From Escherichia phage vB_Ec-G9: a DNA stretch of 44,261 nucleotides. Under the pieces are notes generated by a model. The model had not been told where the DNA came from, did not search any database, and worked only from the letters and a program-made list of their open reading frames with translations. The stretch lies in sequence record PQ433351.1; one strand, written 5' to 3'. The position numbers and the translations under genes were made by a program. Below, piece by piece: positions 10,284 through 44,123 of this stretch. Position 1 is the stretch's first letter. Every line of letters begins with the position of its first letter.

Positions 10284-10715
10284 ATGGACTGTATAGACCA
10301 CGGGCATTATAAGTGCTTAAATCAATTAGGTTACTACAGGTCGTGGCATAAACCTAGTAAGAAGTTGCAATTACTTCATCGCGTGGTCTATGCAGAGCAC
10401 CACGGCCTTTCTATAGAGGATATAAAGGATGTAGTGATTAGACACACTTGTGATAATGCAAGATGTATAAACCCTGCACACTTAATATCTGGTACACAGC
10501 AGGACAACATTCAAGACATGATAGGTAGAGGCAGGCGTGCTAGCTTTGCAGGCGAAAAGAATAATCGCGCTAAACTGACTTGGGATGTTGTACGTGCTAT
10601 CAGGGCAACATATGTTGCTAATAAGAAAGGTGAGAGGTTACGACTAGCTAAGCTATATAATGTCTCACCTGCTACCATTAGTGATATTGTAAGCGGGAGG
10701 GTTTGGAAAGAATAA
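10284..10715 (+). CDS. HNH homing endonuclease
   Basis: LHRVVYAEHHG ... VIRHTCDNARCINPAHL (HNH_3-like) plus C-terminal DNA-binding tail; RBS AAAGGAG. Confidence 0.8.
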   Translation: MDCIDHGHYKCLNQLGYYRSWHKPSKKLQLLHRVVYAEHHGLSIEDIKDVVIRHTCDNARCINPAHLISGTQQDNIQDMIGRGRRASFAGEKNNRAKLTWDVVRAIRATYVANKKGERLRLAKLYNVSPATISDIVSGRVWKE

Positions 10716-11722
10716 TGGGTAAGATTAGAAACTTGTTTACTAATAAGGAGGTAGAAGAAGCAGTTGAAAGTGCAAAGCGCGATGATGGCACTATCAACTA
10801 TCGCCTGATGGCGTCTATTCTCTCAGATAACACACATGGGACTACAGTTACAAGGCAGCTTGCAAAGTATTGGGCCAAACAGTTTGAAAAGCGGAAGAAG
10901 AATGGCGAGGCGTATGAAACCTTGGCTATTGCGAACCGTGCTATCAAAGAAGAACGTAAGCTCAGGACTCCTGACCGCTACGAGGATTTGGCTATTGTAC
11001 CATTGCCTGACTCGCCTCATCGAAGTGTATTGGTAATACCTGACACCCATGCACCTTATGAGCATCCAGATACATTAGAGTTTCTGGCAGCGGTGGCAGC
11101 ACGTTACCGTCCAGACACTGTAATTCATCTTGGTGATGAGGCGGACAAGCACGCACTTTCATTCCATACGTCAGATCCTAATCTGGATTCTGCTGGTATG
11201 GAGTTAGAGAAGGCTCGTATCTTCATGCGTAAATTACATAAGATGTTCCCTGTAATGCGCATCTGCCACTCTAATCATGGCTCCTTACATTTCCGTAAGG
11301 CCAGTGCTCATGGCATCCCTGTGCAATACCTGCGCACCTACCGTGAAGTCTTCTTCCCGCAGGGAGGTGGCGACCAGTGGGATTGGCAGCATACGCACGT
11401 CCTTGAGTTGCCGAATGGTGAACAAGTGGCATTCAAGCATCAACCTGCTGGCTCTGTCCTAGCAGATGCAGCGCATGAGCGTATGAACCTTGTGTGTGGT
11501 CACTTGCACGGTAAGATGTCTGTGGAGTACGCACGTAATACACATGAACAGTATTGGGCTGTGCAAGGTGGCTGCTTAATTGATGAGTCATCCCGTGCAT
11601 TTGCCTATGGGCGTGAGTCTAAATACAAGCCAGCATTAGGTTGTGTGGTTATTCTGGAGGGTGTACCTCATATTGTCCCGATGCAAACCAATAGCGACAA
11701 CCGTTGGATTGGCAAGATTTAG
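10715..11722 (+). CDS. calcineurin-like metallophosphoesterase
   Basis: VIPDTHAPY ... HLGDEADKH ... CGHLHG: DxH / GDxxD / GHxH metallophosphatase motifs. Confidence 0.75.
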   Translation: MGKIRNLFTNKEVEEAVESAKRDDGTINYRLMASILSDNTHGTTVTRQLAKYWAKQFEKRKKNGEAYETLAIANRAIKEERKLRTPDRYEDLAIVPLPDSPHRSVLVIPDTHAPYEHPDTLEFLAAVAARYRPDTVIHLGDEADKHALSFHTSDPNLDSAGMELEKARIFMRKLHKMFPVMRICHSNHGSLHFRKASAHGIPVQYLRTYREVFFPQGGGDQWDWQHTHVLELPNGEQVAFKHQPAGSVLADAAHERMNLVCGHLHGKMSVEYARNTHEQYWAVQGGCLIDESSRAFAYGRESKYKPALGCVVILEGVPHIVPMQTNSDNRWIGKI

Positions 11723-11742
11723 TTGACACTATAGAACAAAGG
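11717..11742 (+). promoter_or_regulatory. phage RNAP promoter (variant -12 to -10 GTT)
   Basis: GATTTAGTTGACACTATAGAACAAAG. Confidence 0.7.
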
Positions 11743-11822
11743 GCTAGGTAAGACTTTATCGGCTGGTGTATCCAAATGATATTGCACTAGCCCTTGATTG
11801 TATAGTGAATGGAGGATTCAAT

Positions 11823-12326
11823 ATGTCACACTATGAATGTAAGAAGTGTCATAAGCGTTATGATTACTGTACTTGTGGTCAAGAGAAAACATCTTTTAAA
11901 GTTGGAGACAAGGTATTTCGTAATGAAAAAGATTCGATTCCTTGGAATCAATACTGCAAAGAAGCTGGTATTGACCCTGATAGCCCTGTAACCATAGATG
12001 ATATTGATGGCATTAACTTGTGCTTTCGTGAGGTGAGGGGTACAGGTTGGGATTCCAAAAAATTCAAACTTGCATCTGATAAGTTAGACAACAATATGGT
12101 AACTCAGCCTAAGCACTACGAGTTCTTTGATGGCGTAGAAGCAATTACTATCATCGCCCGTAGTATGACCGAGAAGCAATTCGCGGGGTATTGCATGGGT
12201 AATGCTTTGAAGTATCGTCTGCGTGCAGGTAAGAAGTTCAATACTGAAGAAGACCTGAAGAAAGCAGACTACTACAAAGAGTTATTCCAGAAGCATCGTC
12301 ACGAATGTATTGATGAGGATATTTGA
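11823..12326 (+). CDS. hypothetical protein with N-terminal Cys-rich zinc-ribbon-like segment (167 aa)
   Basis: RBS GGAGG before ATG 11823; CKKCHKRYDYCTC; conserved-looking C-terminal block GYCMGNALKYRLRAGKK. Confidence 0.6.
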   Translation: MSHYECKKCHKRYDYCTCGQEKTSFKVGDKVFRNEKDSIPWNQYCKEAGIDPDSPVTIDDIDGINLCFREVRGTGWDSKKFKLASDKLDNNMVTQPKHYEFFDGVEAITIIARSMTEKQFAGYCMGNALKYRLRAGKKFNTEEDLKKADYYKELFQKHRHECIDEDI

Positions 12327-12327
12327 T

Positions 12328-13275
12328 ATGAATATCTTTGAGTTCCTAGGTCTTCCAGAAGACCACCGCAATCACCCATTCATGCTGGTGAAGCATCGCG
12401 GTGAAGTTCCTGAGAAGAAATTAACTTTTCCATGTTATGCACAGGTGAAACGAGATGGAATATTCAGTGCTGTTGTGGTGCGCAATGATGGTGCTGTTGC
12501 CATCTTTGGTCGTACTGGTAAGAAGCTCGCAAATGTTGAATCCTTGGAAAAGACATTTAGTTTATTTCCTGTCGGGTTGTATCTTGGTGAGTTGCAATCT
12601 ATGGCTGTTGATGTTTATCTTGAAGCTCTGTCAGGAGTGGTAAACCCTAATCGTACAGAGCCACTTGACTTCATAGGCCAGCAGATTAAAGACAACCTGT
12701 ATATCGACTTCTTCGATATGTTAACTATTAAGGCATTCCATGATGGATTCACTGATGTTTCTTATCTCAAACGTTACGATGCTTTACATCGTCGCATCGG
12801 CGCTCATCTTAGCGGGTACAACGCTATCCTTCCTATTACTCCTTGCCATAATGAGCGAGAAGTTGAAGCGTTTGCGCAAGAGCAGATAGACGCAGGCCGA
12901 GAGGGTGCTGTATTCAAACTGGACTGCGATTATGAAGCAGGCCACAAAGGTTATCGTCAGACTAAAGAAGTCCGTAAGGTAACTTATGACCTTACTTGTA
13001 TTGGCTTTGAAGAAGGTAAAGGTAAGTACAAAGGTAAGGTAGCTAACCTCATTTTCAAATGGAAAGGAGGCAAGACAATCAAAGCTATGTTAGGTAAAGG
13101 GTGGACTCATGCAGATGCAGAACAGATGTTCCACGACATTAAACATGGTGGACGATTGAATGTCATTGGTAAAATCTTTGAAGTCAAAGGTCTTCAGGAT
13201 TCAAGCAAGGGCAACATTCGTCTGCCCAAAGCGGGAGAATTAAGACATGACAAAGATGAACCAGATTTCTTTTGA
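12328..13275 (+). CDS. ATP-dependent DNA ligase
   Basis: Motif I KRDG (AQVKRDGIFS), EGAVFK motif; size and position fit phage ligase. Confidence 0.8.
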   Translation: MNIFEFLGLPEDHRNHPFMLVKHRGEVPEKKLTFPCYAQVKRDGIFSAVVVRNDGAVAIFGRTGKKLANVESLEKTFSLFPVGLYLGELQSMAVDVYLEALSGVVNPNRTEPLDFIGQQIKDNLYIDFFDMLTIKAFHDGFTDVSYLKRYDALHRRIGAHLSGYNAILPITPCHNEREVEAFAQEQIDAGREGAVFKLDCDYEAGHKGYRQTKEVRKVTYDLTCIGFEEGKGKYKGKVANLIFKWKGGKTIKAMLGKGWTHADAEQMFHDIKHGGRLNVIGKIFEVKGLQDSSKGNIRLPKAGELRHDKDEPDFF

Positions 13276-13462
13276 TAGCATGAAGGCAACTCGTGCAGTT
13301 GAGGTAGCAGAAGCTATCTTTGAAACTTTATCCTGTGGCATGGAAGTGCCATATACTTTACTTGCTGATGCAGAAGAACTTGGTCTTTCTGTAGAAGCTA
13401 TCCAAGAGAAGGTTGACGAATTATATGGTACAGACGAAGAAGAAACCGACGATTTCATTTGA
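13247..13462 (+). CDS. small acidic protein (71 aa)
   Basis: RBS GGAGA; acidic C-terminus TDEEETDDFI. Confidence 0.5.
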   Translation: MTKMNQISFDSMKATRAVEVAEAIFETLSCGMEVPYTLLADAEELGLSVEAIQEKVDELYGTDEEETDDFI

Positions 13463-13466
13463 AGGA

Positions 13467-13595
13467 ATGGAGATGCTTGAGATGATTCTCAAGCCTTCTT
13501 CTCCGAAGGTGACTAAGACTCATGAAGAGTTAATCGTTGATGAAGTGAAGCGTTACATCATGGATTGTGTCAGAGCACAACTGGTGGTCCAATGA
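13467..13595 (+). CDS. hypothetical small protein (42 aa)
   Basis: ATG 13467 with GAAGGA upstream; stop overlaps next start. Confidence 0.3.
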   Translation: MEMLEMILKPSSPKVTKTHEELIVDEVKRYIMDCVRAQLVVQ

Positions 13596-14053
13596 TACGT
13601 CCAGCTTCCTTCCTAGATATTCCTGAGATTATAAACCTTGGGAATAAATATGTGGAAGAGGAAGTCAAGGTAGTGGCCCATCACTCAGCCTCATGGAATG
13701 TAGAACAAAGCGCGCATAACCTTTGCGCATCTCTTAGTAGAGAAGATTTATTCCTATGGGTTGCTGTAGATGAAGGGCGGATTGTAGGGTTCCTGTGGGC
13801 TGGCTATCACGAGTTGGGCCCTTGGACACCTGTAAGGGTTGCCTCTGACATTCTCTTTTATATTATACCAGAGAAGCGAGGAACCCTACTTGGTATGCGT
13901 CTCATCAAAGCCCTAAAGCAATGGGCTAGTGATAATGAATGCTCTGAGGTTCGCCTGTCTATCGCCTCTGGTATTAATGAAGAACGTGTCGGACGTATGT
14001 ATAAGCGACTTGGCTTTGAACCGTTTGGCACTGTGTACAACCTGAAGTTCTAA
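13592..14053 (+). CDS. GNAT-family N-acetyltransferase
   Basis: GNAT-like core IVGFLWAG ... EKRGTLLGMRLIKAL ... YKRLGFEPFG. Confidence 0.65.
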   Translation: MIRPASFLDIPEIINLGNKYVEEEVKVVAHHSASWNVEQSAHNLCASLSREDLFLWVAVDEGRIVGFLWAGYHELGPWTPVRVASDILFYIIPEKRGTLLGMRLIKALKQWASDNECSEVRLSIASGINEERVGRMYKRLGFEPFGTVYNLKF

Positions 14054-14062
14054 GGAGATAAT

Positions 14063-14272
14063 ATGGGTGTTGTAAAGAAAGCATTTAAGGCTATCGGTCT
14101 TGCTCAAGATGCACCACGTATTGAAGCCAAAGTCCCAGCACAGCAGCTTGAGCGTAAGCCTGAGACTGAAGCTGAAGATATTCAAATTGGTGCAGGTGGT
14201 GATGATGCGACTGCATCTGCAAAAGGTAAGCGCGGCCTTGTCCGTCCGGTAGCTTCTAGCTTGAAGGTGTAA
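14063..14272 (+). CDS. hypothetical protein (69 aa), possibly virion-associated
   Basis: Strong RBS TAAGGAG; immediately upstream of portal. Confidence 0.5.
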   Translation: MGVVKKAFKAIGLAQDAPRIEAKVPAQQLERKPETEAEDIQIGAGGDDATASAKGKRGLVRPVASSLKV

Positions 14273-14273
14273 T

Positions 14274-29129: not shown

Positions 29130-29324
29130 ATGATTAACTCCGAACTGGTAGATAGTGGTGTGAAGCTTGCGCCACCTGCACTCGTATCAGGTGGGTACTT
29201 CCTCGGTATCAGTTGGAATAATTGGGTGTTAATAGCAACATTCATTTATACCGTGTTGCAAATTGGGGACTGGTTTTATAATAAGTTCAAGATTTGGAGG
29301 GAGAAGCGTGAGCGTACACAATAA
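29130..29324 (+). CDS. class II holin (T7 gp17.5-like)
   Basis: ELVDSGVKLAPPALVSGGYFLGIS...IYTVLQIG closely parallels T7 holin ELIKAAPIVGTGVADVSARLFFGLS...AYTVVQIG. Confidence 0.8.
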   Translation: MINSELVDSGVKLAPPALVSGGYFLGISWNNWVLIATFIYTVLQIGDWFYNKFKIWREKRERTQ

Positions 29325-29607
29325 ACATGCAGCTACAGAGGACGAGGTTGGCATTCTGCATGGTGCTATTACCAAAATCTTCAATAAGAAAGCACAGGCA
29401 ATACTGGACACTATAGAAGAAGACCCTGATGCAGCATTACATTTAGTGTCTGGTAAGGATATTGGTGCGATGTGTAAGTGGGTTCTTGATAACGGCATTA
29501 CCGCCACACCTGCTGCACAGCAGGAAGAGTCCAAGTTATCTAAGCGCCTCAAGGCTATCCGAGAGGCATCCAGTGGTAAGATAATTCAATTCACTAAGGA
29601 GGATTGA
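29308..29607 (+). CDS. terminase small subunit (positional call)
   Basis: GTG start with RBS GGAGGGAG; between holin and large terminase as in T7 gene 18. Confidence 0.55.
   Translation: MSVHNKHAATEDEVGILHGAITKIFNKKAQAILDTIEEDPDAALHLVSGKDIGAMCKWVLDNGITATPAAQQEESKLSKRLKAIREASSGKIIQFTKED
29401..29422 (+). promoter_or_regulatory. phage RNAP promoter embedded in small terminase coding region
   Basis: ATACTGGACACTATAGAAGAAG; encodes LDTIEE in frame. Confidence 0.6.
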
Positions 29608-31505
29608 TGGCTAAGGCAAGAGAATCACAAGCGGAGGCTCTTGCCAGATGGGAGATGCTACAGGAGTTACAGCAGACCTTTCCTTACACAGCGGAAGGTT
29701 TGCTTCTCTTTGCAGATACAGTTATCCATAACTTGATTGCAGGCAACCCTCATCTGATTCGTATGCAGGCTGATATCTTGAAGTTCCTATTCTACGGACA
29801 TAAGTATCGCCTCATCGAAGCGCCTCGTGGTATCGCTAAGACAACACTATCAGCAATCTATACGGTATTCCGTATTATCCATGAACCGCATAAGCGTATC
29901 ATGGTTGTATCCCAAAACGCCAAGCGAGCAGAGGAAATCGCAGGTTGGGTAGTTAAAATCTTCCGTGGCCTAGACTTTCTTGAGTTTATGCTACCAGACA
30001 TCTACGCAGGGGACCGTGCATCCGTTAAGGCGTTTGAGATTCATTACACCCTACGTGGTAGTGATAAGTCTCCTTCTGTATCCTGTTACTCAATCGAAGC
30101 AGGTATGCAGGGTGCTCGTGCTGATATTATTCTAGCGGATGACGTAGAGTCGATGCAGAATGCTCGTACGGCAGCGGGCCGTGCCTTGCTTGAGGAACTG
30201 ACTAAGGAGTTTGAATCTATCAACCAGTTTGGGGATATCATTTACCTTGGTACACCTCAGAACGTAAACTCTATCTACAACAACCTACCTGCTCGTGGTT
30301 ACTCTGTTCGTATCTGGACTGCGCGTTACCCTTCAGTAGAGCAAGAGCAATGTTATGGCGACTTCCTTGCACCTATGATTGTTCAAGATATGAAGGACAA
30401 CCCAGCACTTCGCTCAGGGTACGGGTTGGATGGTAATAGTGGTGCACCTTGTGCCCCTGAAATGTATGATGATGAAGTCCTGATTGAGAAGGAAATCTCT
30501 CAGGGTGCTGCTAAGTTCCAGCTTCAGTTCATGCTTAACACTCGCATGATGGATGCTGACAGATACCCATTACGCCTGAACAATCTAATCTTCACCTCGT
30601 TTGGTACAGAGGAAGTCCCTGTGATGCCTACGTGGAGTAATGATTCCATAAACATCATTGGTGATGCACCTAAGTATGGTAACAAGCCTACGGATTTCAT
30701 GTACAGACCTGTAGCTCGCCCATACGAATGGGGTGCTGTCTCCCGCAAGATTATGTATATTGACCCTGCGGGTGGTGGTAAGAACGGAGATGAGACGGGT
30801 GTAGCCATCGTATTCCTGCACGGCACATTCATTTATGTGTATCAGTGCTTTGGTGTACCTGGTGGATACCGAGAGTCGTCCCTGAATCGCATTGTGCAGG
30901 CCGCAAAGCAGGCGGGTGTTAAAGAGGTATTCATTGAGAAGAACTTTGGTCATGGCGCGTTTGAGGCGGTAATTAAGCCGTACTTTGAACGAGAGTGGCC
31001 TGTAACTCTGGAAGAGGATTACGCCACCGGACAGAAAGAGTTGCGTATCATTGAGACGCTGGAGCCGCTCATGGCAGCCCATAGGCTTATCTTCAATGCA
31101 GAGATGGTGAAGTCAGACTTCGAGTCGGTACAGCACTATCCGCTTGAACTACGCATGTCCTACAGTCTTTTCAATCAAATGTCGAACATAACGATTGAGA
31201 AGAACAGCCTCCGGCACGATGACCGCCTAGACGCCCTGTATGGCGCTATACGGCAATTAACTTCTCAGATAGACTATGACGAGGTTACACGGATTAATCG
31301 CCTCAGAGCGCAGGAGATGCGCGATTACATCCATGCTATGAACACACCTCATCTACGCAGGGCAATGCTATATGGAGATTACGGTACTGAGCGAAGAGTG
31401 ACCAACACTTCCGTAGCGATGCAGCAGCGAGTTTACGGGCAGAACTACCGAAATAAATCGGCAAGCAGAAATACACTTTCTGCAAGGATTTCAAGGACTT
31501 ATTAA
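29607..31505 (+). CDS. terminase large subunit
   Basis: ATPase motif region GHKYRLIEAPRGIAKTT; size about 630 aa; position. Confidence 0.9.
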   Translation: MAKARESQAEALARWEMLQELQQTFPYTAEGLLLFADTVIHNLIAGNPHLIRMQADILKFLFYGHKYRLIEAPRGIAKTTLSAIYTVFRIIHEPHKRIMVVSQNAKRAEEIAGWVVKIFRGLDFLEFMLPDIYAGDRASVKAFEIHYTLRGSDKSPSVSCYSIEAGMQGARADIILADDVESMQNARTAAGRALLEELTKEFESINQFGDIIYLGTPQNVNSIYNNLPARGYSVRIWTARYPSVEQEQCYGDFLAPMIVQDMKDNPALRSGYGLDGNSGAPCAPEMYDDEVLIEKEISQGAAKFQLQFMLNTRMMDADRYPLRLNNLIFTSFGTEEVPVMPTWSNDSINIIGDAPKYGNKPTDFMYRPVARPYEWGAVSRKIMYIDPAGGGKNGDETGVAIVFLHGTFIYVYQCFGVPGGYRESSLNRIVQAAKQAGVKEVFIEKNFGHGAFEAVIKPYFEREWPVTLEEDYATGQKELRIIETLEPLMAAHRLIFNAEMVKSDFESVQHYPLELRMSYSLFNQMSNITIEKNSLRHDDRLDALYGAIRQLTSQIDYDEVTRINRLRAQEMRDYIHAMNTPHLRRAMLYGDYGTERRVTNTSVAMQQRVYGQNYRNKSASRNTLSARISRTY

Positions 31506-33270: not shown

Positions 33271-35169
33271 ATGGCTAAATTAACCAAACCTAATACTGAA
33301 GGAATCTTGCATAAAGGACAATCGTTGTATGAGTACCTTGATGCGAGAGTTTTAACATCAAAGCCGTTTGGTGCTGCAGGTGACGCCACTACTGATGATA
33401 CGGAGGTTATAGTTGCTTCATTAAACTCTCAGAAAGCTGTCACAGTCTCAGATGGTGTATTCTCTAGCTCTGGTATTAATAGTAATTACTGTAACTTAGA
33501 CGGTAGGGGTAGTGGCGTGCTAAGTCACCGTTCCAGTACAGGTAACTACTTAGTATTTAACAATCTACGTGCAGGTCGCTTAAGTAATATTACGGTAGAA
33601 AGTAATAAGGCGACTGATACAACTCAGGGACAGCAGGTATCTCTTGCTGGTGGAAGTGATGTTACTGTAAGTGACGTTAACTTCTCAAACGTTAAAGGTA
33701 CTGGTTTCAGTTTAATCGCATACCCTAATGATGCGCCACCTGATGGACTTATGATTAAAGGCATTCGAGGTAGCTATTCCGGCTATGCTACTAATAAGGC
33801 AGCCGGGTGTGTACTTGCTGACTCCTCAGTTAACTCCCTCATAGATAACGTCATTGCTAAGAACTACCCTCAGTTCGGAGCAGTAGAGCTGAAAGGTACA
33901 GCCAGTTATAACATAGTCAGCAATGTTATAGGGGCAGACTGCCAGCATGTAACTTACAACGGTACAGTAGGGTCAATAGCTCCCTCTAACAACCTTATCA
34001 ATGGGGTAGTGGCTAATAATCCTAAATATGCAGCGGTTGTTGCAGGCAAAGGTAGTACCAACTTAATCTCAGATGTGCTTGTAGATTTCTCAATCTCTGA
34101 TGCTAGTCAGGCTCACGGTGTTACAGTAGAAGGCTCTGATAACGTAATAAGCAATGTGCTTATGTCAGGATGTGATGGTACTAACTCTTCAGGACAAGCT
34201 CAAACTGCTACAATTGCGCGCTTTATAGGTACAGCTAATAACAACTATGCGTCTGTATTTCCTAGCTACAGTGCTACAGGTGTTATTACTTTCGAATCAG
34301 GTTCTACCCGTAACTTCGTAGAGGTAAAGCATCCGGGAAGGAGAAACGACCTTCTCAGTACTGCTAGTGCTATTGACGGTGCAGCTACTATTGACGGCAC
34401 TAGTAATAGTAACGTAGTGCACGCACCTGCCTTAGGGCAGTACATAGGTAGTATGTCAGGTAGGTTCGAATGGCGGATTAAGTCCATGTCACTCCCTTCA
34501 GGCGTTCTTACTTCTGCTGATAAGTACAGAATGCTTGGGGATGGTGCTGTGTCATTAGCTTTAGGTGGTGGCACTTCTTCTCAAGTTCGCCTATTTACTT
34601 CTGATGGTACTTCTCGGACAGTGTCCCTCACCAACGGTAACGTGCGTCTTTCTACCAGTAGCACAGGCTTTTTGCAGTTAGGTGCTGATGCAATGACCCC
34701 AGATAGTACTGGTACATACGCATTAGGTTCCGCCAGTCGAGCATGGTCTGGCGGTTTTACTCAAGCAGCATTCACTGTTACCTCAGATGCTCGGTGTAAA
34801 ACAGAACCTCTTACTATCTCAGATGCCTTACTGGATGCTTGGTCTGAAGTTGACTTTGTGCAGTTTCAGTATTTGGATCGTGTTGAGGAGAAGGGTGCAG
34901 ACTCAGCTAGATGGCACTTTGGCATCATAGCTCAGCGAGCTAAGGAGGCTTTCGAACGACACGGTATAGATGCACATCGCTATGGCTTCTTGTGCTTCGA
35001 CAGTTGGGATGATGTATACGAGGAAGATGCCAATGGCTCTCGTAAACTGATTACACCAGCAGGTTCCCGCTACGGTATTCGTTACGAGGAAGTACTGATA
35101 TTAGAGGCTGCGTTGATGCGGCGGACTATTAAGCGTATGCAGGAGGCACTAGCTTCCCTGCCTAAGTAA
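33271..35169 (+). CDS. tailspike 1 with beta-helix body and C-terminal intramolecular chaperone (peptidase S74-like) domain
   Basis: RBS AGGAG before ATG 33271; repetitive Ser/Thr/Asn/Gly-rich beta-helix-like body; C-terminal ~110 aa block (DARCKTEP...WHFGIIAQRAKEAF...GIRYEEVLILEAA) resembles the auto-cleaving chaperone domain of endosialidase/K5-lyase tailspikes, from memory. Confidence 0.7.
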   Translation: MAKLTKPNTEGILHKGQSLYEYLDARVLTSKPFGAAGDATTDDTEVIVASLNSQKAVTVSDGVFSSSGINSNYCNLDGRGSGVLSHRSSTGNYLVFNNLRAGRLSNITVESNKATDTTQGQQVSLAGGSDVTVSDVNFSNVKGTGFSLIAYPNDAPPDGLMIKGIRGSYSGYATNKAAGCVLADSSVNSLIDNVIAKNYPQFGAVELKGTASYNIVSNVIGADCQHVTYNGTVGSIAPSNNLINGVVANNPKYAAVVAGKGSTNLISDVLVDFSISDASQAHGVTVEGSDNVISNVLMSGCDGTNSSGQAQTATIARFIGTANNNYASVFPSYSATGVITFESGSTRNFVEVKHPGRRNDLLSTASAIDGAATIDGTSNSNVVHAPALGQYIGSMSGRFEWRIKSMSLPSGVLTSADKYRMLGDGAVSLALGGGTSSQVRLFTSDGTSRTVSLTNGNVRLSTSSTGFLQLGADAMTPDSTGTYALGSASRAWSGGFTQAAFTVTSDARCKTEPLTISDALLDAWSEVDFVQFQYLDRVEEKGADSARWHFGIIAQRAKEAFERHGIDAHRYGFLCFDSWDDVYEEDANGSRKLITPAGSRYGIRYEEVLILEAALMRRTIKRMQEALASLPK

Positions 35170-35254: not shown

Positions 35255-36967
35255 ATGCTTCAAAGATTAAGTGCTTACTTGGTGAAGTACAAGAGTAAAC
35301 TAACAGGTACTATTGAGCGCCTGCTATCTGATAAACTATCGGATACAATAGATGTTGCGGATTTTGGAGTTAATCCATCCTCTAATGACAACAGGCAAGC
35401 CCTTCAAGCTGCATTCAATGCGGTCAGACTGCTAGGCGGTGGTACTGTAGCAGTCACTAAAGCTGGCGAATATAAACTCAGTGGTACTGTTGAGATATTT
35501 GCTAATACACACTTCAAGGTTGCTAAAGGTGTAACATTTGTACGTGACTACGAAACAGGAGATACTCTATTCAGATTATCACAAGGGCAAGCTAGTAATG
35601 TAACAGTCAGTGGAGGTATCTATGAAGGCAATGGTCACACTAAGGGAGATACACCTTTTGTAGTATTTGCATCTACTAGTAATAATGATTTGAAGTTTGA
35701 AGGCATAACAGTTAACAATGTAGTGGACTACCACGCCATAGATTTAGCAGATTGGAACAACGTAGTTATTCGTGATTGTAAATTCCTAGGGTTTAAGAAT
35801 ACAGGCAGTCGTAACTTCTCAGAGGCTATACAGTTAGACCCAGGACTTATTACAGTAGGTCGCTATGTGCAGTCTAGTGGTTTACTGGTAGAGAATTGCT
35901 ATGCTGGCCCAAACCTTGATTCTGGATTTGGCGGGTATGGTGCTCTAGTAGGGAATCATGCATCAGCTTATGGTGTTCAAGATAACAACATTAGAATCCT
36001 AAATTGCACTACAGATGGTGCGCTCTTTGCAGGTGTACGTGTATTTAACTGGAAAAACTGGACAGTACGTGGTTGCACCTTTAGAAACTCTAATGCAAGA
36101 GGTGTTCATGTTACACCTGTCTCCTCTCAAACTAAACCGCAAGGAACTCGACAAGGTAGTGTTGTAGATTGTACTTTTGATGGCGTAAGAACACCAGTGC
36201 TAATTGCTGCACCATCTTGGCCTTTTACCGATATTAGTGACATTTGGCATGACCATATTGAAATTTCTAATAATATTATGATCCTCACAGAGGATGTATC
36301 CTATGGTGTAGATGCAAGGTGGTGTAAGAATTTAATTGTAAAAGGTAATACAGGCTCTGGTGGCTTAGGGTTAATCGGTTTACGCTTTGGGACAAAGTAC
36401 CACATCGAAGGTAATACTTGGGAAAACGGAAGAGGTAGTGGGATTTGGTTAAGTGAGTCTGATGCTACTACATTCATTGGTACTGGTTTATCAGGAGAAG
36501 GTATACTTAGTCGTAATATCTTCTCTAAATTAGGGCAACATGGTATTCATGTAAACTGCAAGGTTGGCGGTCTAGTGATTAAGGCTAATAATATGAAGGA
36601 AGTATCTACAGCTGAAGCAGGTAGGCACTTCATTAGCATAGACACAGGAGCTAACAACATCCTAGTAGAGGGTAATATTGGAGTAGATGGAGAAAGCCCT
36701 AACAAGCCAAGCCTTGGTATTAGTGTTACTTCTTCTTGCTCCAATATTAAACTAATTGGCAATGATTGCTATGGTACGCAAGCACCTCAGGATAACCAAG
36801 GAGTCGGTTCTAGTACGGTGATTGTTTATGGACTAAATGGCAATCCTACAACTTTAGGCGTAGGTGCACCTGTAGGCTCTTTAGCAACTAATATCAATGG
36901 GTCTGGTGGTAGTGCATTGTACGTTAAAAAATCTGGTACTTCTGCTAAAGGCTGGGTTGCAAAGTAG
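35255..36967 (+). CDS. tailspike 2, right-handed beta-helix (pectate-lyase-like depolymerase fold)
   Basis: Strong RBS AAAGGAGG; repeated NxxV / GNxG beta-helix-like motifs; no chaperone domain. Confidence 0.75.
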   Translation: MLQRLSAYLVKYKSKLTGTIERLLSDKLSDTIDVADFGVNPSSNDNRQALQAAFNAVRLLGGGTVAVTKAGEYKLSGTVEIFANTHFKVAKGVTFVRDYETGDTLFRLSQGQASNVTVSGGIYEGNGHTKGDTPFVVFASTSNNDLKFEGITVNNVVDYHAIDLADWNNVVIRDCKFLGFKNTGSRNFSEAIQLDPGLITVGRYVQSSGLLVENCYAGPNLDSGFGGYGALVGNHASAYGVQDNNIRILNCTTDGALFAGVRVFNWKNWTVRGCTFRNSNARGVHVTPVSSQTKPQGTRQGSVVDCTFDGVRTPVLIAAPSWPFTDISDIWHDHIEISNNIMILTEDVSYGVDARWCKNLIVKGNTGSGGLGLIGLRFGTKYHIEGNTWENGRGSGIWLSESDATTFIGTGLSGEGILSRNIFSKLGQHGIHVNCKVGGLVIKANNMKEVSTAEAGRHFISIDTGANNILVEGNIGVDGESPNKPSLGISVTSSCSNIKLIGNDCYGTQAPQDNQGVGSSTVIVYGLNGNPTTLGVGAPVGSLATNINGSGGSALYVKKSGTSAKGWVAK

Positions 36968-36978
36968 TAGGAGGTTGA

Positions 36979-37128
36979 ATGCCATTAATCAAATCAGTCA
37001 AGCAAAGTGCTGTACGCCAGAACACAGAAGAGCTTATTCAATCAGGACGTGACCATAAGCAAGCTTATGCGATTGCCAAGGATGTACAACGTCGTGCTAT
37101 GAAGAAACCTTCTGCATCTTCTGCGTAA
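36979..37128 (+). CDS. hypothetical small basic protein (49 aa)
   Basis: Strong RBS AGGAGG; below ORF-track cutoff. Confidence 0.4.
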   Translation: MPLIKSVKQSAVRQNTEELIQSGRDHKQAYAIAKDVQRRAMKKPSASSA

Positions 37129-37154
37129 GCAGGTTAATATCTTAGGAGGTAATT

Positions 37155-37616
37155 ATGGAAGTTTGGAGGCCTATTGCTGGTATACCAGATTACATGGTTT
37201 CCTCCTTTGGTCGTGTTAGATCTCATAAAAGAGGTAAGGTTACTATACTAAACCCTCCGCACGACAAAGGAGGTTATCGTAATGTTGTGCTACGTGTTAA
37301 TGGTGAAAAGATAAATCGCAAGGTACATAGGCTTGTGGCAGAGGCTTTCTTACCTAACCCTCACGGTTTACCTCAAGTAAATCACAAGGATGAAGTAAGA
37401 GACAATAATCATGTAAGTAATCTGGAGTGGTGTGATTGTGCATACAACGTAGATTACTCTCAAGCAGCTACTTATACTGTGATGTGCCCTAAAGGTAATA
37501 TCTTAGTAGTAAGGAATGTGGCTAAGTTTTGTAGGGAAAACGGATTAAGCAGTGGTTCTTTTACAGATATGCTTAAGGGAAGACGTAAGCAACATAAGGG
37601 TTATCGCTTAGTGTAA
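37155..37616 (+). CDS. HNH homing endonuclease (NUMOD4 + HNH)
   Basis: WRPIAGIPDYMVSSFGRV (NUMOD4-like) and VNHKDEVRDNNHVSNLEW (HNH). Confidence 0.8.
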   Translation: MEVWRPIAGIPDYMVSSFGRVRSHKRGKVTILNPPHDKGGYRNVVLRVNGEKINRKVHRLVAEAFLPNPHGLPQVNHKDEVRDNNHVSNLEWCDCAYNVDYSQAATYTVMCPKGNILVVRNVAKFCRENGLSSGSFTDMLKGRRKQHKGYRLV

Positions 37617-37669
37617 TACTTAGTGAGAGGGCTATACATGCCAAGTGGAAAATTTGATATGTATATGCG

Positions 37670-37980
37670 TCAAGTGTCTCGCCCTCGCCCTCGCCGGGTT
37701 GTCCCCATAGGGTGGCCTGAGGGAATCCGTCGAAGACGGGCAGGGCTGATGTCCTCCTTGGCTAGTACAAGGGAAGACCGAGGGAACGCCTAGGACGGCC
37801 TAGGGAATGGTTTAGTGGCGGACAAGGTGATTGCCTTAGTGAAGCCTCTTAGTACATTCCTGAGGCCATTCAGGGCGTTTATGAGGCATTGACAGGGTGG
37901 GCGTGGGTGGGCTATCTGTTCGTTTCGTTCACTCCGCTTGCGCTACGTTCACTCGCTCACGTGTACCTTAGGTTGTTCCT
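37670..37980. other. GC-rich non-coding segment; candidate terminal-repeat / genome-end region
   Basis: No ORF of 60 aa or more on either strand in 37617-38418; composition unlike flanking genes; short direct repeat CGTTCACTC twice. Confidence 0.3.
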
Positions 37981-37990
37981 TGATGGATAG

Positions 37991-38093
37991 CTTAGGTTAG
38001 CCTTAGTGGACTACCTTAGTTATAACCTTAGTGCTTATCTTAGTAATAGCTTAGTAGTGTACCTTAGTAAGTCTTAGTGTCTTCTCTTAGTGA
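37991..38093. repeat. array of about 9 short [CT]CTTAG[GT] heptamer-like repeats at about 12-bp period
   Basis: GCTTAGG, CCTTAGTG, CCTTAGTT, CCTTAGTG, TCTTAGTA, GCTTAGTA, CCTTAGTA, TCTTAGTG, TCTTAGTG; further scattered copies to 38410. Confidence 0.8.
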
Positions 38094-38238
38094 TTGCACA
38101 TGCAAGCATGTAAGATGCCATTAGGTCGCGGTCGGTAGACCGCTAAAGAAAGAGAATAGTAATAAGATGCAGTAGGAGGAACACCAGAAACCTAGCCAAC
38201 CTAGCCTATCCTAGCTCTGTATCTATTGCTTTTCCTTA

Positions 38239-38254
38239 GTCTCACATGTTAGAC
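38239..38254. repeat. palindrome variant GTCTCACATGTTAGAC (copy 5)
   Basis: One half-site base changed. Confidence 0.75.
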
Positions 38255-38288
38255 AACCTAGCTTATTCTTAGTGATGATAACTTAGTG

Positions 38289-38317
38289 TTGACAAGATAA
38301 TCTTAGTGTAATACTAT
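38289..38317 (+). promoter_or_regulatory. host sigma70-type early promoter candidate
   Basis: TTGACA - 17 bp - TACTAT. Confidence 0.55.
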
Positions 38318-38389
38318 GCATCACGTAGGCGGTGCTGAGGCACCTAGTAGCCAGCTAGTAAGGCATACGAAGAGACTAGCGCTTACATT

Positions 38390-38401
38390 GCTCTTTAACA
38401 A
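38390..38401 (+). promoter_or_regulatory. boxA-like antitermination element (copy 1)
   Basis: GCTCTTTAACAA, extended TTGCTCTTTAACAATTTG, identical to E. coli rrn boxA core. Confidence 0.6.
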
Positions 38402-38460
38402 TTTGCTTAGTGTAACCTATGTATGCCGTGGTTAATTACTTATTGAATGAGGGATTAACT

Positions 38461-39146: not shown

Positions 39147-39158
39147 GCTCTTTAACAA
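39147..39158 (+). promoter_or_regulatory. boxA-like antitermination element (copy 3)
   Basis: TTGCTCTTTAACAATTTG, 18/18 identical to copy 1. Confidence 0.6.
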
Positions 39159-39253
39159 TTTGGAAGGTAGCTTCTTAGTCGGGATAGGTTAGACCTAGGG
39201 CATTCTTTGAGTGCCCTATAATGTAACCTAACTAACTAATGAGGATTAATAAC

Positions 39254-39610: not shown

Positions 39611-39612
39611 AG

Positions 39613-39726
39613 ATGGAAAAGCAATATAACTTTATCTTTTCTGATGGTGTAACCTTGAAATGCTCCTTACGATTCGCCCAGATTCGCGAGGAAGTGCTAG
39701 GTACTACATATAAACTATTTATCTGA
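39613..39726 (+). CDS. early hypothetical small protein (37 aa)
   Basis: ATG 3 nt after ocr stop; below ORF-track cutoff. Confidence 0.3.
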   Translation: MEKQYNFIFSDGVTLKCSLRFAQIREEVLGTTYKLFI

Positions 39727-39740
39727 CACTATAAGAGAGG
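39716..39740 (+). promoter_or_regulatory. phage-promoter-like variant (ACTATAAGAG)
   Basis: TATTTATCTGACACTATAAGAGAGG: upstream half matches, +1 region differs. Confidence 0.35.
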
Positions 39741-39805
39741 ATTTAACAGGGCGTTACTTGTTAGCGCCCGATTAAGTTTATCTCAATAAACCAAATAGGT
39801 GACTT

Positions 39806-40690
39806 ATGACTACTGAAAACACCCTCCTGTCTGTTCGTGAAGCTGCAACCGCTGAGATCAAGCAACACTTAGACAATATCGGCACTTCTTACATCAAAGT
39901 TGGCGCTTGTCTTAATGAGTTACGCGGTGACTTTGAAGGTCAAAAAGACTTTTTGGCTTATGTAGAATCAGAATTTGGAATCAAGAAAGCACAATGTTAC
40001 AAGCTGATGAGTGTAGCCCGTGTCTTTGAAGGCGATGATCGCTTTAAAGGCGTGGCGATGCGTGTAATGCTGGCACTTGTTCCTTTCGCTGATGAAAATA
40101 TCATCATGGAGAAAGCCGCAGAACTTGCCGCAGCGGGCAAGCTGGACACTAACGCCGTGAACGCCCTGATTGAGCCTAAGAAAGAGCCAAAGTCTGAGAC
40201 GGTACAATCCAAGGCTGAGCCTGTAAAACCGAAGGAGAACGCGACTGCGGCCGCAGAATTACAGGAAACGCAAGCGCCGCAGGAAGTGCCGCCAGCAAGT
40301 GAGTCGGATGACGACAAATCAGCACCGTGGGAAGAGGAAAGCAAGCCGGAAGCGCCAAAGGCCGCGCCACTGGACAACACGGCTAACACTGAAAACGCCG
40401 CTATGGCTGGCCTACTGGCACAAATTAAGGCACTGACTGAGCAATTACAGGCAGCTAACGACCGCATCGCCGCCCTAACCAGTGCACGTGAAAGCAAGAA
40501 GGCAGCCGCGCCTATGCTTCCCCAATTCAAATCTAAATGTCTCTATGCTCGCTTGGGTTTAAGCGCTGAGGAGGCAACGAAGAAAACAGCAGTTAACAAG
40601 GCACGCCGCGAACTGGTTAAGCTAGGCTATGGTGAAGGCCATGAAGCATGGGCCTTAATCTCTGAGGCAGTAGAAGAATTAACTAAGTAA
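39806..40690 (+). CDS. early protein with low-complexity Pro/Glu/Lys/Ala-rich central linker (294 aa)
   Basis: ORF immediately upstream of RNAP gene (position of T7 gene 0.7); noticeably GC-richer codon usage; no kinase motifs seen. Confidence 0.6.
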   Translation: MTTENTLLSVREAATAEIKQHLDNIGTSYIKVGACLNELRGDFEGQKDFLAYVESEFGIKKAQCYKLMSVARVFEGDDRFKGVAMRVMLALVPFADENIIMEKAAELAAAGKLDTNAVNALIEPKKEPKSETVQSKAEPVKPKENATAAAELQETQAPQEVPPASESDDDKSAPWEEESKPEAPKAAPLDNTANTENAAMAGLLAQIKALTEQLQAANDRIAALTSARESKKAAAPMLPQFKSKCLYARLGLSAEEATKKTAVNKARRELVKLGYGEGHEAWALISEAVEELTK

Positions 40691-40753
40691 CCTTATCGGT
40701 GGCATCTTCTTAGGTGTCACCTATTAAGGTTTCTTTCACTAGGAGTAAACAAG

Positions 40754-43381
40754 ATGCAAGACTTACACGCTATTCAACTTCAACTTGAAGAAGAAATGTT
40801 TAACGGCGGTATCCGTCGCTTTGAAGCGGACCAACAGCGCCAGATTGCATCCGGTAATGAATCAGACACGGCATGGAATCGCCGCTTATTGTCCGAGTTA
40901 ATTGCGCCAATGGCTGAAGGTATTCAGGCATACAAGGAAGAGTATGAAGGTAAAAGAGGCCGTGCACCGCGTGCATTAGCTTTCATTAACTGCGTAGAAA
41001 ATGAAGTGGCAGCGTATATCACGATGAAAATCGTTATGGATATGCTGAACACGGATGTAACCTTGCAGGCTATAGCCATGAATGTAGCTGACCGCATTGA
41101 GGACCAAGTACGTTTTAGCAAGCTGGAAGGTCACGCCGCCAAATACTTTGAGAAAGTTAAGAAGTCACTTAAGGCAAGTAAGACTAAATCATATCGCCAT
41201 GCGCACAACGTAGCGGTCGTGGCTGAGAAGTCAGTAGCTGACCGTGACGCTGATTTCTCTCGCTGGGAGGCGTGGCCTAAAGATACCTTGCTACAAATCG
41301 GTATGACCTTGCTAGAAATACTGGAAAATAGTGTATTCTTCAATGGTCAGCCTGTCTTTCTTCGCACCTTGCGCACTAATGGTGGCAAGCATGGCGTTTA
41401 CTACTTACAGACTAGCGAACACGTAGGTGAATGGATAACTGCATTTAAAGAGCACGTAGCTCAGCTGAGTCCAGCCTATGCACCTTGCGTTATTCCTCCG
41501 CGTCCGTGGGTTTCTCCGTTTAATGGTGGCTTTCACACCGAGAAGGTGGCGAGTCGTATTCGTCTGGTTAAAGGAAACCGCGAGCACGTCCGCAAGCTGA
41601 CCAAAAAGCAAATGCCAGCGGTTTACAAGGCTGTTAACGCTTTGCAGGCGACTAAGTGGCAGGTTAATAAAGAGGTTTTGCAGGTAGTAGAGGACGTTAT
41701 CCGTCTCGACCTTGGTTATGGTGTGCCTTCCTTTAAACCACTCATCGACCGTGAGAACAAGCCAGCTAATCCAGTGCCGTTAGAGTTCCAGCACCTGCGA
41801 GGCCGTGAACTTAAAGAGATGCTAACGCCAGAACAGTGGCAAGCTTTTATAAACTGGAAAGGAGAATGTACCAAGCTGTATACCGCTGAAACTAAGCGCG
41901 GAAGCAAGTCGGCGGCGACCGTTCGCATGGTAGGACAAGCGCGCAAGTACAGCCAGTTCGACGCGATTTATTTCGTGTATGCACTGGATAGCCGTTCACG
42001 CGTTTATGCGCAATCTAGCACGCTCTCTCCGCAATCAAACGACTTAGGCAAGGCATTGCTCCGTTTTACCGAAGGGCAGCGTCTTGATAGCGCTGAGGCG
42101 CTTAAGTGGTTTTTGGTGAACGGGGCGAATAACTGGGGTTGGGATAAGAAAACTTTTGACGTGCGCACCGCTAACGTGCTGGATAGCGAATTTCAAGACA
42201 TGTGCCGCGACATTGCAGCCGACCCGCTGACCTTCACTCAATGGGTAAATGCTGATTCCCCTTACGGCTTCCTTGCATGGTGCTTTGAATATGCGCGTTA
42301 TCTGGATGCACTGGATGAAGGCACGCAAGACCAATTCATGACGCACCTACCCGTCCATCAAGACGGTAGTTGCTCTGGTATCCAGCACTATAGCGCGATG
42401 TTACGCGATGAAGTAGGTGCGAAAGCAGTAAACCTTAAGCCTTCTGACTCCCCTCAAGATATTTATGGCGCGGTTGCGCAGGTTGTTATCCAGAAGAATT
42501 ACGCCTACATGAATGCAGATGATGCAGAGACTTTCACATCTGGAAGCGTCACACTTACAGGTGCAGAACTGCGTAGCATGGCTAGTGCGTGGGATATGAT
42601 AGGAATCACTCGCGGCCTGACCAAAAAGCCCGTAATGACACTACCTTATGGCAGCACACGTCTAACCTGCCGTGAATCAGTGATTGATTATATCGTTGAT
42701 TTGGAAGAAAAAGAGGCCCAACGAGCTATTGCCGAAGGGCGGACGGCGAATCCCGTGCACCCTTTTGATAATGACCGCAAAGACTACCTTACACCTGGTG
42801 CAGCCTACAACTATATGACGGCTTTAATTTGGCCTTCTATCTCTGAGGTTGTTAAAGCTCCTATAGTGGCGATGAAGATGATTCGCCAGCTTGCACGTTT
42901 CGCAGCTAAAAGGAATGAAGGGTTAGAATACACCTTGCCAACTGGCTTCATCTTGCAACAAAAGATAATGGCTACCGATATGCTCCGTGTATCCACTTGC
43001 TTGATGGGTGAAATCAAGATGAGTCTACAGATTGAAACTGATGTAGTGGATGAAACGGCAATGATGGGCGCTGCCGCTCCTAACTTTGTTCACGGGCACG
43101 ATGCTAGTCACCTTATATTAACGGTATGTGACCTTGTTGATAAAGGGATTACATCTATCGCAGTAATTCATGATTCTTTTGGCACTCATGCAGGCCGTAC
43201 AGCCGATCTACGCAACAGCTTAAGGGCAGAAATGGTGAAGATGTATCAAGGCCGTAATGCACTGCAAAGCCTGCTAGATGAGCACGAAGAACGCTGGTTA
43301 GTTGATACAGGAATCCAAGTACCAGAGCAAGGAGAGTTTGACCTTAACGAAATCTTAGTATCTGACTATTGCTTCGCATAA
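40754..43381 (+). CDS. single-subunit DNA-dependent RNA polymerase (T7/SP6 type)
   Basis: [39 protein letters not shown] and C-terminal SDYCFA match T7 RNAP catalytic and C-terminal motifs; 875 aa. Confidence 0.95.
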
Positions 43382-43389
43382 TATTAATA

Positions 43390-43420
43390 GGCCATTCCTT
43401 CGGGAGTGGCCTTTCTTTTA
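43390..43420 (+). terminator. strong intrinsic terminator with UUCG tetraloop after RNAP gene
   Basis: GGCCATTCC-TTCG-GGAGTGGCC (9-bp stem, one G.U) followed by TTTCTTTT. Confidence 0.8.
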
Positions 43421-43454
43421 CCTACTACCTGTAACATTTCATTAACATAAACGT

Positions 43455-43470
43455 GTCTAACATGTGAGAC
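43455..43470. repeat. palindrome variant GTCTAACATGTGAGAC (copy 6)
   Basis: Mirror-image variant of copy 5; abuts promoter at 43471. Confidence 0.75.
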
Positions 43471-43495
43471 TTATTTACCGGACACTATAGGATAG
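43471..43495 (+). promoter_or_regulatory. phage RNAP promoter
   Basis: TTATTTACCGGACACTATAGGATAG. Confidence 0.7.
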
Positions 43496-43499
43496 CCGT

Positions 43500-43630
43500 C
43501 GGAGACGGGAAAGAAAGGGAAGATAAAAGGATATAAAAGGAAGTAATAGGTATTAAAGGTTATATATAGGTTTACCTAGGAATACCTATTACCTTCTTCC
43601 TTCCTCTTATTACTACTTAGAGGAAGGGCA
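43500..43630. other. AT-rich imperfect long inverted repeat; candidate replication origin or structured leader
   Basis: Purine-rich arm GGGAAAGAAAGGGAAGATAAAAGGA and pyrimidine-rich arm CCTTCTTCCTTCCTCTT around TATATAGGTTTACCTAGG; sits between two tandem phage promoters just downstream of the RNAP gene. Confidence 0.4.
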
Positions 43631-43640
43631 GATCTAGGTT

Positions 43641-43656
43641 GTCTCACATGTGAGAC
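43641..43656. repeat. 16-bp perfect palindrome GTCTCACATGTGAGAC (copy 7)
   Basis: Exact; 4 bp upstream of promoter at 43661. Confidence 0.9.
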
Positions 43657-43660
43657 TTCG

Positions 43661-43684
43661 TATTTACCGGACAGTATAGATAAG
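43661..43684 (+). promoter_or_regulatory. phage RNAP promoter (variant -5 G)
   Basis: TATTTACCGGACAGTATAGATAAG. Confidence 0.6.
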
Positions 43685-43706
43685 ACTAACTTACTTTGGA
43701 GGTTAC

Positions 43707-44123
43707 ATGCGTAAATCATTAGCTCAAAGAGTAGAGCAAGCAGGTTATACTATACAAGACGACGGCACTATCAAAGGTAAACGAGGTAACACCTTGAAAC
43801 CCTGGCTTCAATCTTCAGGATATCCAGTTGTAAATATAGTATTCAAGAAAGGTACAAGAACAACTACCCTTGTGCATCGCATAATTGCTAGTAAGTATTG
43901 TCCTTGCTCTGACCCATTGGCTAATGATGTAAACCACAAAGACGGAAACAAGACTAATAATGCAGCTTCTAATCTTGAATGGATTACACGTAGGCAGAAC
44001 CGTAATCACTATTTAGGTTTTGAGGACTATATGATACTTACGGCAGATGATGCCCGTAAGAAGAATAATGAGCGCACTATTGCTCGACGTAAATTACTTA
44101 AACAGTTGAATAATAAGGATTAA
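43707..44123 (+). CDS. HNH homing endonuclease
   Basis: LVHRIIASKY ... VNHKDGNKTNNAASNLEW; RBS GGAGG. Confidence 0.8.
   Translation: MRKSLAQRVEQAGYTIQDDGTIKGKRGNTLKPWLQSSGYPVVNIVFKKGTRTTTLVHRIIASKYCPCSDPLANDVNHKDGNKTNNAASNLEWITRRQNRNHYLGFEDYMILTADDARKKNNERTIARRKLLKQLNNKD

Follow-up and report, generated by a model that had tools for sequence, protein, structure and literature searches.

Three HNH endonuclease genes at separate loci of Escherichia phage vB_Ec-G9, probable free-standing homing endonuclease genes with empty sites in close relatives

Escherichia phage vB_Ec-G9 (sequence record PQ433351.1) carries three HNH endonuclease genes at separate loci, which we call HNH1, HNH2 and HNH3 by coordinate order. 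All coordinates are positions in the window, that is, the whole stretch of 44,261 nucleotides (nt) that was analysed. The initial annotation had placed HNH genes at 10284, 37155 and 43707, and indeed all three open reading frames (ORFs) are intact, lie on the plus strand and exceed the Pfam HNH_3 cut-off. By comparison with related phages, the three genes of this Vectrevirus genome are probably homing endonuclease genes (HEGs) of the free-standing type, members of the His-Me/HNH superfamily. The genes are the following:

10284..10715, plus strand: HNH1, 143 amino acids (aa), free-standing HNH_3/His-Me finger nuclease with a Cys-rich core and a C-terminal helix-turn-helix (HTH)
37155..37616, plus strand: HNH2, 153 aa, I-HmuI-like, NUMOD4 + HNH + putative C-terminal NUMOD-like HTH
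43707..44123, plus strand: HNH3, 138 aa, I-HmuI-like, N-terminal domain and HNH core, basic C-terminal tail, without a C-terminal HTH

The gathering cut-off of Pfam HNH_3 (PF13392) is 24.8 bits; HNH1 scores 33.1 bits, HNH3 35.4 and HNH2 a marginal 24.9, and all three proteins match PHROG families named "HNH endonuclease" (E 1e-26 to 1e-41). The NUMOD4 N-terminus that had been read on one of the genes belongs to HNH2 (E 1.1e-13, 51.6 bits vs a cut-off of 23.4), which has an additional, sub-threshold match to the NUMOD-like domain of I-HmuI. HNH3 has no Pfam NUMOD4 match, though its N-terminus aligns with that of I-HmuI. In a phmmer comparison with I-HmuI (PDB 1U3E), HNH2 aligns in two stretches with E 2.9e-15 and HNH3 with E 2.5e-12; H77 and N98 of both proteins align with H75 and N96 of I-HmuI, which we take to be the catalytic His (general base) and a metal ligand (1U3E), and N76 of HNH2 aligns with D74. 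HNH2 and HNH3 are 36% identical over the core. The motif NHKD...NN...NLEW had been ascribed to all three genes; it is present in HNH2 (VNHKDEVRDNNHVSNLEW) and HNH3 (VNHKDGNKTNNAASNLEW) only. The core of HNH1 is a different one, with the His-Me sequence RHTCDNARCINPAHLISGTQQDN and the Cys-rich pattern HTCDN..C.NP.HL, a weak match to Pfam zf-His_Me_endon and a C-terminal HTH (phrog_517). When HNH1 was aligned with 12 homologues drawn from a collection of 5.8 billion proteins, C3, H54, C56, D57, C61, N63, P64, H66, D74 and N75 were invariant. The catalytic His and the metal-ligand Asn/His of the beta-beta-alpha core are thus predicted to be intact in all three proteins. The ratio of nonsynonymous to synonymous divergence (dN/dS) is 0.07 for HNH1 against the Ulipvirus copy in Koku and 0.04 for HNH3 against UAB_Phi78, and such values point to purifying selection on both proteins. 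The GC content of the three genes (0.38-0.42) compares with 0.45 for the genome.

By megablast the genome falls in the genus Vectrevirus, with 93-97% identity to many E. coli K1/K5 phages. In a collection of 50,697 phage records, its closest relative is Vectrevirus T147P1 (95.3% identity over 40.5 kb), from which it shows large differences at just the three HNH loci and one tailspike; of the genomes compared, LL11 is the furthest removed (89% overall). The initial annotation had suggested looking for relatives that lack each insertion, and empty sites for all three genes were found in K1-5 and T147P1; at no locus was the site occupied in all relatives. The carriers of HNH1, HNH2 and HNH3 are different, scattered phages, and no other record in the collection holds two of the three genes. 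GenBank already annotates HNH endonucleases at the matching positions in vB_EcoP_C (gp40), LL11 (gp55), VEc3 (gp09) and PhiNW-E1, each phage with one of the three, and we found no paper that describes the presence/absence pattern of these orthologues. Further HNH sites are vacant in vB_Ec-G9, namely those between gene 8 and the primase gene and upstream of the DNA polymerase gene in LL11, and one that separates the two terminase subunit genes (small and large) in VEc3 and AAPEc6. This brings the HNH sites of Vectrevirus to six or more, and their occupancy differs by lineage.

HNH1 lies between endonuclease VII and a phosphoesterase, as had been annotated, and its surroundings are these:

9881..10282, plus strand: endonuclease VII, left flank of HNH1 (Pfam Endonuclease_7, E 1.4e-12)
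10715..11722, plus strand: metallophosphoesterase, right flank of HNH1 (Pfam Metallophos; phrog_221, E 3.5e-105)
10715..10955, plus strand: HNH1-linked allele at the 5' end of the phosphoesterase gene (80 codons, ~240 nt)
10956..11722, plus strand: remaining metallophosphoesterase gene, ordinary Vectrevirus sequence

The HNH1 start at 10284 is an ATG one base past the endonuclease VII stop codon; it is preceded by AAAGGAG and shared by the orthologues, and on these grounds a longer mechanical ORF from 10152 was rejected as the gene. In HNH-less genomes the endonuclease VII and phosphoesterase genes overlap, and the ribosome-binding site (RBS) that serves the phosphoesterase there is used in vB_Ec-G9 by HNH1, whose stop codon in turn overlaps the phosphoesterase ATG (TAATG). 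Endonuclease VII ends in ...ARKKGV*, three residues shorter than in the HNH-less K1-5 (...ARKKEVKVG*). Homology with K1-5, T147P1, VEc3 and LL11 breaks off at 10277 and is back only at about 10942-10955, well into the phosphoesterase gene. The first 240 nt of this gene have about 52% nucleotide identity to the HNH-less allele, as against 92-100% downstream; at the protein level, 40 of 80 residues (50%) agree with K1-5 in the 5' part and 249 of 255 (97.6%) in the rest. The same 5' allele is 95-99% identical to that of every HNH1-carrying Vectrevirus, with a sharp boundary near 10955. In a blastn search with the 240 nt at 95% identity or more, the Vectrevirus matches were exactly the carriers of the HNH1 family (vB_EcoP_B/C/D/K/R and PDP21P6), and the allele was not found at that level in other Vectrevirus records.

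Among these carriers, vB_EcoP_C has the gene as gp40 (97.9% identity), PDP21P6 has a 72% variant, and the copy in vB_EcoP_B is truncated to 124 aa. Outside the genus, the gene immediately before the phosphoesterase is an HNH1 homologue in Ulipvirus phages of Klebsiella (90%) and in Drulisvirus Minorna (55%); in Minorna the upstream neighbour is a different gene. An exact-protein look-up in wider public assemblies found four contigs that carry HNH1, and scans of IMG/VR yielded just two more short metagenome contigs with HNH1, with no additions for the other two genes. In PDP21P6, the 3' half of the endonuclease VII gene is divergent (48-78% nucleotide identity), yet the phosphoesterase carries the HNH-linked 5' allele (95%). 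This mix of alleles suggests that exchange has occurred more than once at this junction.

The arrangement at HNH1 has a close parallel in phage T4, where the MobE endonuclease makes its nick in the 5' region of nrdB, the gene next to its own, with co-conversion of the flanks (PMC2790892). Because the pattern is the same, HNH1 may act on the common phosphoesterase allele, within its 5' part, and the linked allele may resist it. By the same analogy, the divergent 5' segment would be a co-conversion or cleavage-immunity tract.

HNH2 occupies the end of the genome, where the features are:

36980..37129, plus strand: 49-aa gene (K1-5 gene 48 homologue), conserved, left flank of the HNH2 slot
37146..37642, plus strand: HNH2 cassette, in the hypervariable last slot of the genome
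37679..37914, no strand assigned: terminal repeat, one copy, counterpart of bases 1-236 of K1-5 and also of its right end

The terminal repeat opens with TCTCGCCCTCGCC at 37679, the position of K1-5 base 1, and the HNH2 stop codon lies 62 bp upstream of it. HNH2 is the last gene before the repeat, which bears out its earlier placement at the right genome end. Homology with all relatives stops at 37145 (...AATATCTTAG) and resumes at about 37643 (CCAAAGT..AAAATTTGAT...). The slot is filled differently elsewhere: K1-5 has 185 bp with gp49, VEc3 has gp57, T147P1 has another short sequence, and Sem1 has a shorter NUMOD4-HNH gene whose product is 53% identical to HNH2. At more than 95% identity HNH2 was found in LL11 only among the 50,697 records, and it is absent from all but LL11 among ~110 related records. 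The two copies are very close (96.7% aa identity to LL11 gp55, 8 nt differences in 459, synonymous divergence (dS) 0.03), and the next relatives share about 50% identity and come from other genera, where they occupy different positions. The closest relative outside Vectrevirus in the phage collection, at 1501-2060 of Erwinia phage Era103, lies downstream of the DNA polymerase gene, is split into two ORFs (p16 and p17) and appears to be a decaying copy.

In the wider public assemblies, the identical HNH2 protein is found on 14 contigs. Six places were examined; in each, HNH2 comes after the 49-aa gene (in one case a 40-aa call), with at least four different tailspike genes as neighbours overall, and homology of these contigs to the genome starts right at the end of the tailspike gene. 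Since the neighbouring tailspikes differ and the slot is variable, HNH2 is best described as a cassette in a hypervariable end slot adjoining the host-range module. The locus thus appears as a replacement within this slot and not as a clean insertion. Identity around HNH2 is raised only slightly against LL11, a rise confounded by the common tailspike module. Homing of HNH2 is plausible, and it is the least well supported of the three.

The tailspike genes directly upstream of HNH2 (33285-35166 and 35309-36975) are themselves mosaic. The first is unlike that of T147P1 and matches K1-5 and LL11 (annotated in LL11 as K5-lyase type); the second, a Beta_helix gene, agrees with T147P1 and LL11, not with K1-5 or VEc3. 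This mosaicism looks like a swapping of host-range modules. A further feature of this end of the genome is the heptamer CTTAGTR, of which there are 36 copies against 15 expected genome-wide, 17 of the 36 falling within about 800 bp (37600-38412). The cluster surrounds the terminal repeat and the left-end non-coding region, and at each end the HNH2 cassette joins the genome at a CTTAG(T) copy; the array is reminiscent of the short repeat arrays beside the T7 terminal repeat.

HNH3 follows the RNA polymerase (RNAP) gene and a promoter region, arranged as follows:

40754-43381, plus strand: RNAP gene, upstream of the HNH3 region
43389-43412: terminator-like hairpin in the RNAP-gene 8 intergenic region
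43454..43490, plus strand: first palindrome and phage promoter (ATTTACCGGACACTATAG), downstream of the RNAP gene
43537-43554 / 43581-43598: 18-nt inverted repeat, in a purine-rich stretch between both promoters
43640..43679, plus strand: second palindrome and phage promoter (ATTTACCGGACAGTATAG), with the HNH3 start 28 nt downstream
44126..44257, plus strand: gene 8, 43 aa, T7 gene 1.1 homologue, right flank of HNH3

The two promoters belong to direct repeats of ~40 nt, each composed of a 16-nt palindrome, GTCT[A/C]ACATGTGAGAC, followed by the promoter ATTTACCGGACA[C/G]TATAG at 43473 and 43662. Genome-wide there are 12 such phage promoters, all on the plus strand, against 0.06 expected, and a sigma-70 promoter scan near the HNH loci gave no more sites than shuffled sequence. 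In HNH-less genomes the second promoter drives gene 8, and the intergenic region 43383-43706 is conserved in HNH-less relatives. Gene 8 has a precomputed Pfam Phage_T7_1_1 match on an identical arrangement. In T7, gene 1, the promoters phi1.1A/B and gene 1.1 mark the place of the primary origin, and the gene 8 match together with the promoters means that the layout here mirrors that order. The label "origin-like" given to this region earlier is a fair analogy, and 43383-43706 may be the counterpart of the T7 primary origin. HNH3 had been placed inside it; it does lie in the interval between the RNAP gene and gene 8/primase, but on the downstream margin of the region, past both the second promoter and the RBS.

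The HNH3 junctions can be read base by base. The empty site in an alignment of K1-5, LL11 and T147P1 reads ...ACTTTGGAGATTTAACC-ATGCG(T/C)AACTTTGAG, and the filled site in vB_Ec-G9 and VEc3 reads ...ACTTTGGAGGTTAC-ATGCGTAAATCA...[HNH3]...AATAAGGATTAATT-ATGCGTACTAACTTTGAG. The insertion lies exactly at the gene 8 start codon, with an inserted block of ~43705-44134. HNH3 has taken over the promoter and RBS of gene 8, which receives a new RBS (AAGGA) from the 3' end of HNH3 and one extra codon (MRTNFEK vs MRNFEK). Of 87 phage records that match the RNAP-primase region, 84 lack HNH3, and it is covered only by VEc3 (two records) and PhiNW-E1; identity to VEc3 gp09 and to PhiNW-E1 is 96-97%. Orthologues sit in the same slot between the RNAP gene and gene 8/primase in the Zindervirus phages UAB_Phi78 and pSL2 (90% aa identity) and in the Acadevirus phages PM93 and PM116 (71%). 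The exact-protein look-up found three contigs that carry HNH3. In the Logan assemblies ERR15500961, ERR15500962 and ERR15903923, HNH1 and HNH3 are each matched by an identical protein encoded on short contigs, probably pieces of a fragmented assembly of vB_Ec-G9 or of a very close relative.

We interpret the three genes as homing elements on the basis of the empty sites, the patchy carriers, the exact junctions and the divergent flank linked to HNH1, and the same comparison speaks for the earlier claim that they are mobile selfish elements. Among close relatives, each gene is present or absent at an identical site, with the empty sites intact. A flank polymorphism linked to the gene is found at HNH1, is weak at HNH2 and is unseen at HNH3. 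The sites are also kept across taxa, with the HNH3 slot filled in three genera and HNH1 upstream of the phosphoesterase in Ulipvirus and Drulisvirus. Cleavage, target position, nicking or double-strand cutting, and present-day mobility are what we infer from these patterns.

By analogy with I-HmuI, T4 MobE and the Seg proteins, homing might proceed as follows. In a mixed infection with a HEG-less relative, the enzyme would nick or cut that relative's allele in or close to the empty site. Repair by recombination with the carrier genome would then copy the HEG and some of its flank into the recipient, and the carrier would be protected because its own target is broken up by the insertion or by a linked polymorphism in the flank. 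For HNH1 the target is probably the 5' end of the phosphoesterase, and its cassette includes the divergent first 80 codons. HNH3 probably targets the junction of promoter, RBS and start codon of gene 8. HNH2 would represent a NUMOD4-HNH lineage that keeps to the final slot ahead of the terminal repeat.

A more far-reaching proposal, which we regard as possible and rather doubtful, is that HNH1 and the divergent 80 codons of the phosphoesterase form a two-part mobile cassette in which the nuclease would cut the common 5' allele and the linked allele would be the immunity determinant, with an analogous reading for HNH2. If this holds for HNH1, homing would maintain a sharp phosphoesterase dimorphism in a conserved gene of the replication module across several genera of Autographiviridae. 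If it holds for HNH2, the endonuclease gene at the genome end, beside the tailspike genes, would help to move host-range modules between Vectreviruses.

Several observations weigh against homing at two of the loci. The HNH2 slot varies in every lineage, and the identical HNH2 protein travels with gene 48 beside at least four tailspike genes; the presence or absence of HNH2 may thus reflect a general shuffling of genome-end cassettes and not endonuclease-driven homing. Around HNH3 there is no tract of elevated identity to VEc3, and its nucleotide identity to the Zindervirus (78-87%) and Acadevirus (64-72%) copies is not above that of the flanking RNAP and primase genes. This divergence is equally compatible with long vertical residence and repeated loss through recombination with empty alleles. 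As the divergence tracks the flanks, HNH3 may be old in this phage group, and the suggestion that these genes mark recent insertions is not supported for it, though all three loci remain handy strain markers.

These HNH3 data, together with the filling of its slot in three genera, are what favours the strongest alternative, in which the HNH genes are ancestral SP6-like accessory genes, vertically inherited, often lost and immobile, their patchiness due to deletion or recombination with empty alleles. We consider this unlikely. A dN/dS of 0.04-0.07 on genes missing from 90-99% of relatives points to selection at the level of the element, and no pair of the three genes co-occurs in any other record. 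The HNH1-linked flank has a sharp boundary, the identical HNH2 protein stands beside differing tailspikes, and the dS of HNH2 against LL11 is only 0.03 despite LL11 being the most distant genome compared.

A second alternative is that the nucleases are kept mainly for competition between phages (marker exclusion) or as domesticated enzymes of DNA metabolism, and are not purely selfish. Marker exclusion by I-HmuI-like HNH enzymes has been observed in Skunavirus (PMC12724721), HNH1 sits among nuclease and repair genes (exonuclease, endonuclease VII), and HNH3 is predicted to be the first gene of a phage-promoter transcript and so to be expressed with the DNA-metabolism genes. However, exclusion is mechanistically the same act as homing, the cutting of a competitor allele, and would be an added benefit and not another mechanism; moreover, most relatives without the genes propagate well on the same hosts. 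As a replacement for homing, this explanation is very improbable. The idea that HNH2 is a packaging-associated nuclease that aids terminase in concatemer processing, as in HK97-like phages, has in its favour the 62 bp between HNH2 and the terminal repeat and is scarcely credible, as HNH2 is of the I-HmuI-like NUMOD4-HNH type, the terminase genes (29263-31505) do not adjoin it and it lacks the terminase-adjacent, conserved character of HK97 gp74, ~110 related records package normally with HNH2 in LL11 only, and other lineages have unrelated short ORFs in the slot; it was rejected on domain type, position and distribution.

With homing as the preferred reading, the case is an ordinary one of selfish phage HEGs, a well-known phenomenon with near-identical orthologues already annotated, and current understanding is unchallenged by it. 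Its use is more practical. The three HNH loci and the one tailspike are convenient for telling strains apart and are likely recombination breakpoints in therapeutic K1/K5 coliphages. The pair of HNH1 and phosphoesterase would be a clean natural example, in the T7 supergroup, of a homing endonuclease linked to a resistant neighbour allele, and HNH1 could yield a new site-specific nickase.

As for the genome as a whole, the stretch is a complete, circularly permuted Vectrevirus genome (K1-5/K1E/SP6-like; Autographiviridae, Molineuxvirinae). All long ORFs are on the plus strand. K1-5 1-1120 and K1-5 44116-44385 (the right end) both map at the terminal repeat, and since K1-5 base 1 and the right-end repeat of K1-5 fall in one place, the record is circularly permuted with a single copy of the repeat. 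No identical record was found in the phage collection. The stretch ends in ...GTTA and begins with TGGCT...; positions 44258-44261 joined to 1-1988 are the region of the primase/helicase gene, which has a split start codon (A|TG GCT ATT...). Because the cut falls inside this ATG, the mechanical ORF list begins primase/helicase at an internal ATG at position 72. Three segments, 1985-2146, 6257-6527 and 8670-8854, are missing or unalignable in K1-5 and LL11 (6257-6527 also in VEc3) and present in T147P1; they hold ORFs of 53 and 86 aa among others and are variable small accessory genes.

Among known systems, the closest in protein type is I-HmuI of Bacillus phage SPO1 (PDB 1U3E), an HNH homing (nicking) endonuclease with a NUMOD4-like N-terminal part, an HNH domain and a C-terminal HTH. 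HNH2 aligns with it over residues 4-108 (N-terminal/HNH) and 121-151 (C-terminal HTH), and HNH3 over residues 13-123 (N-terminal/HNH); the catalytic His and the distal Asn are kept in both. Identity is ~30-40% only, the Asp before the catalytic His is Asn in HNH2 and HNH3, and HNH3 has no C-terminal HTH. The I-HmuI gene resides in a group I intron within the DNA polymerase gene, whereas HNH1-3 stand free between genes. In this they resemble the genes of T4 MobE and the Seg proteins, phage homing endonucleases that are likewise free-standing, cleave the gene next to their own and co-convert flanking sequence (PMC2790892, PMC2988022): all lie between conserved genes, with upstream or borrowed expression signals. 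HNH1 is also like MobE in the place of its polymorphism tract, which is the 5' end of the next gene, the phosphoesterase in place of nrdB; MobE differs from HNH1-3 in its phage family and in having a mapped target site and nick. At the level of populations, the I-HmuI-like HNH genes of the lactococcal Skunavirus cluster by insertion site (PMC12724721), and in ICP1 and other phages nuclease genes lie at the boundaries of genetic exchange (PMC10448857). These belong to other phage families and hosts, and the classes differ as well, HNH1 having an HTH and the IPA-HNH class an AP2 domain. As in Skunavirus and ICP1, the HNH genes of Vectrevirus cluster by insertion site and at the borders of exchanged segments, and as in those phages and the T4-like phages, their number and position vary among close relatives (PMC12724721, PMC10448857, PMC2988022).

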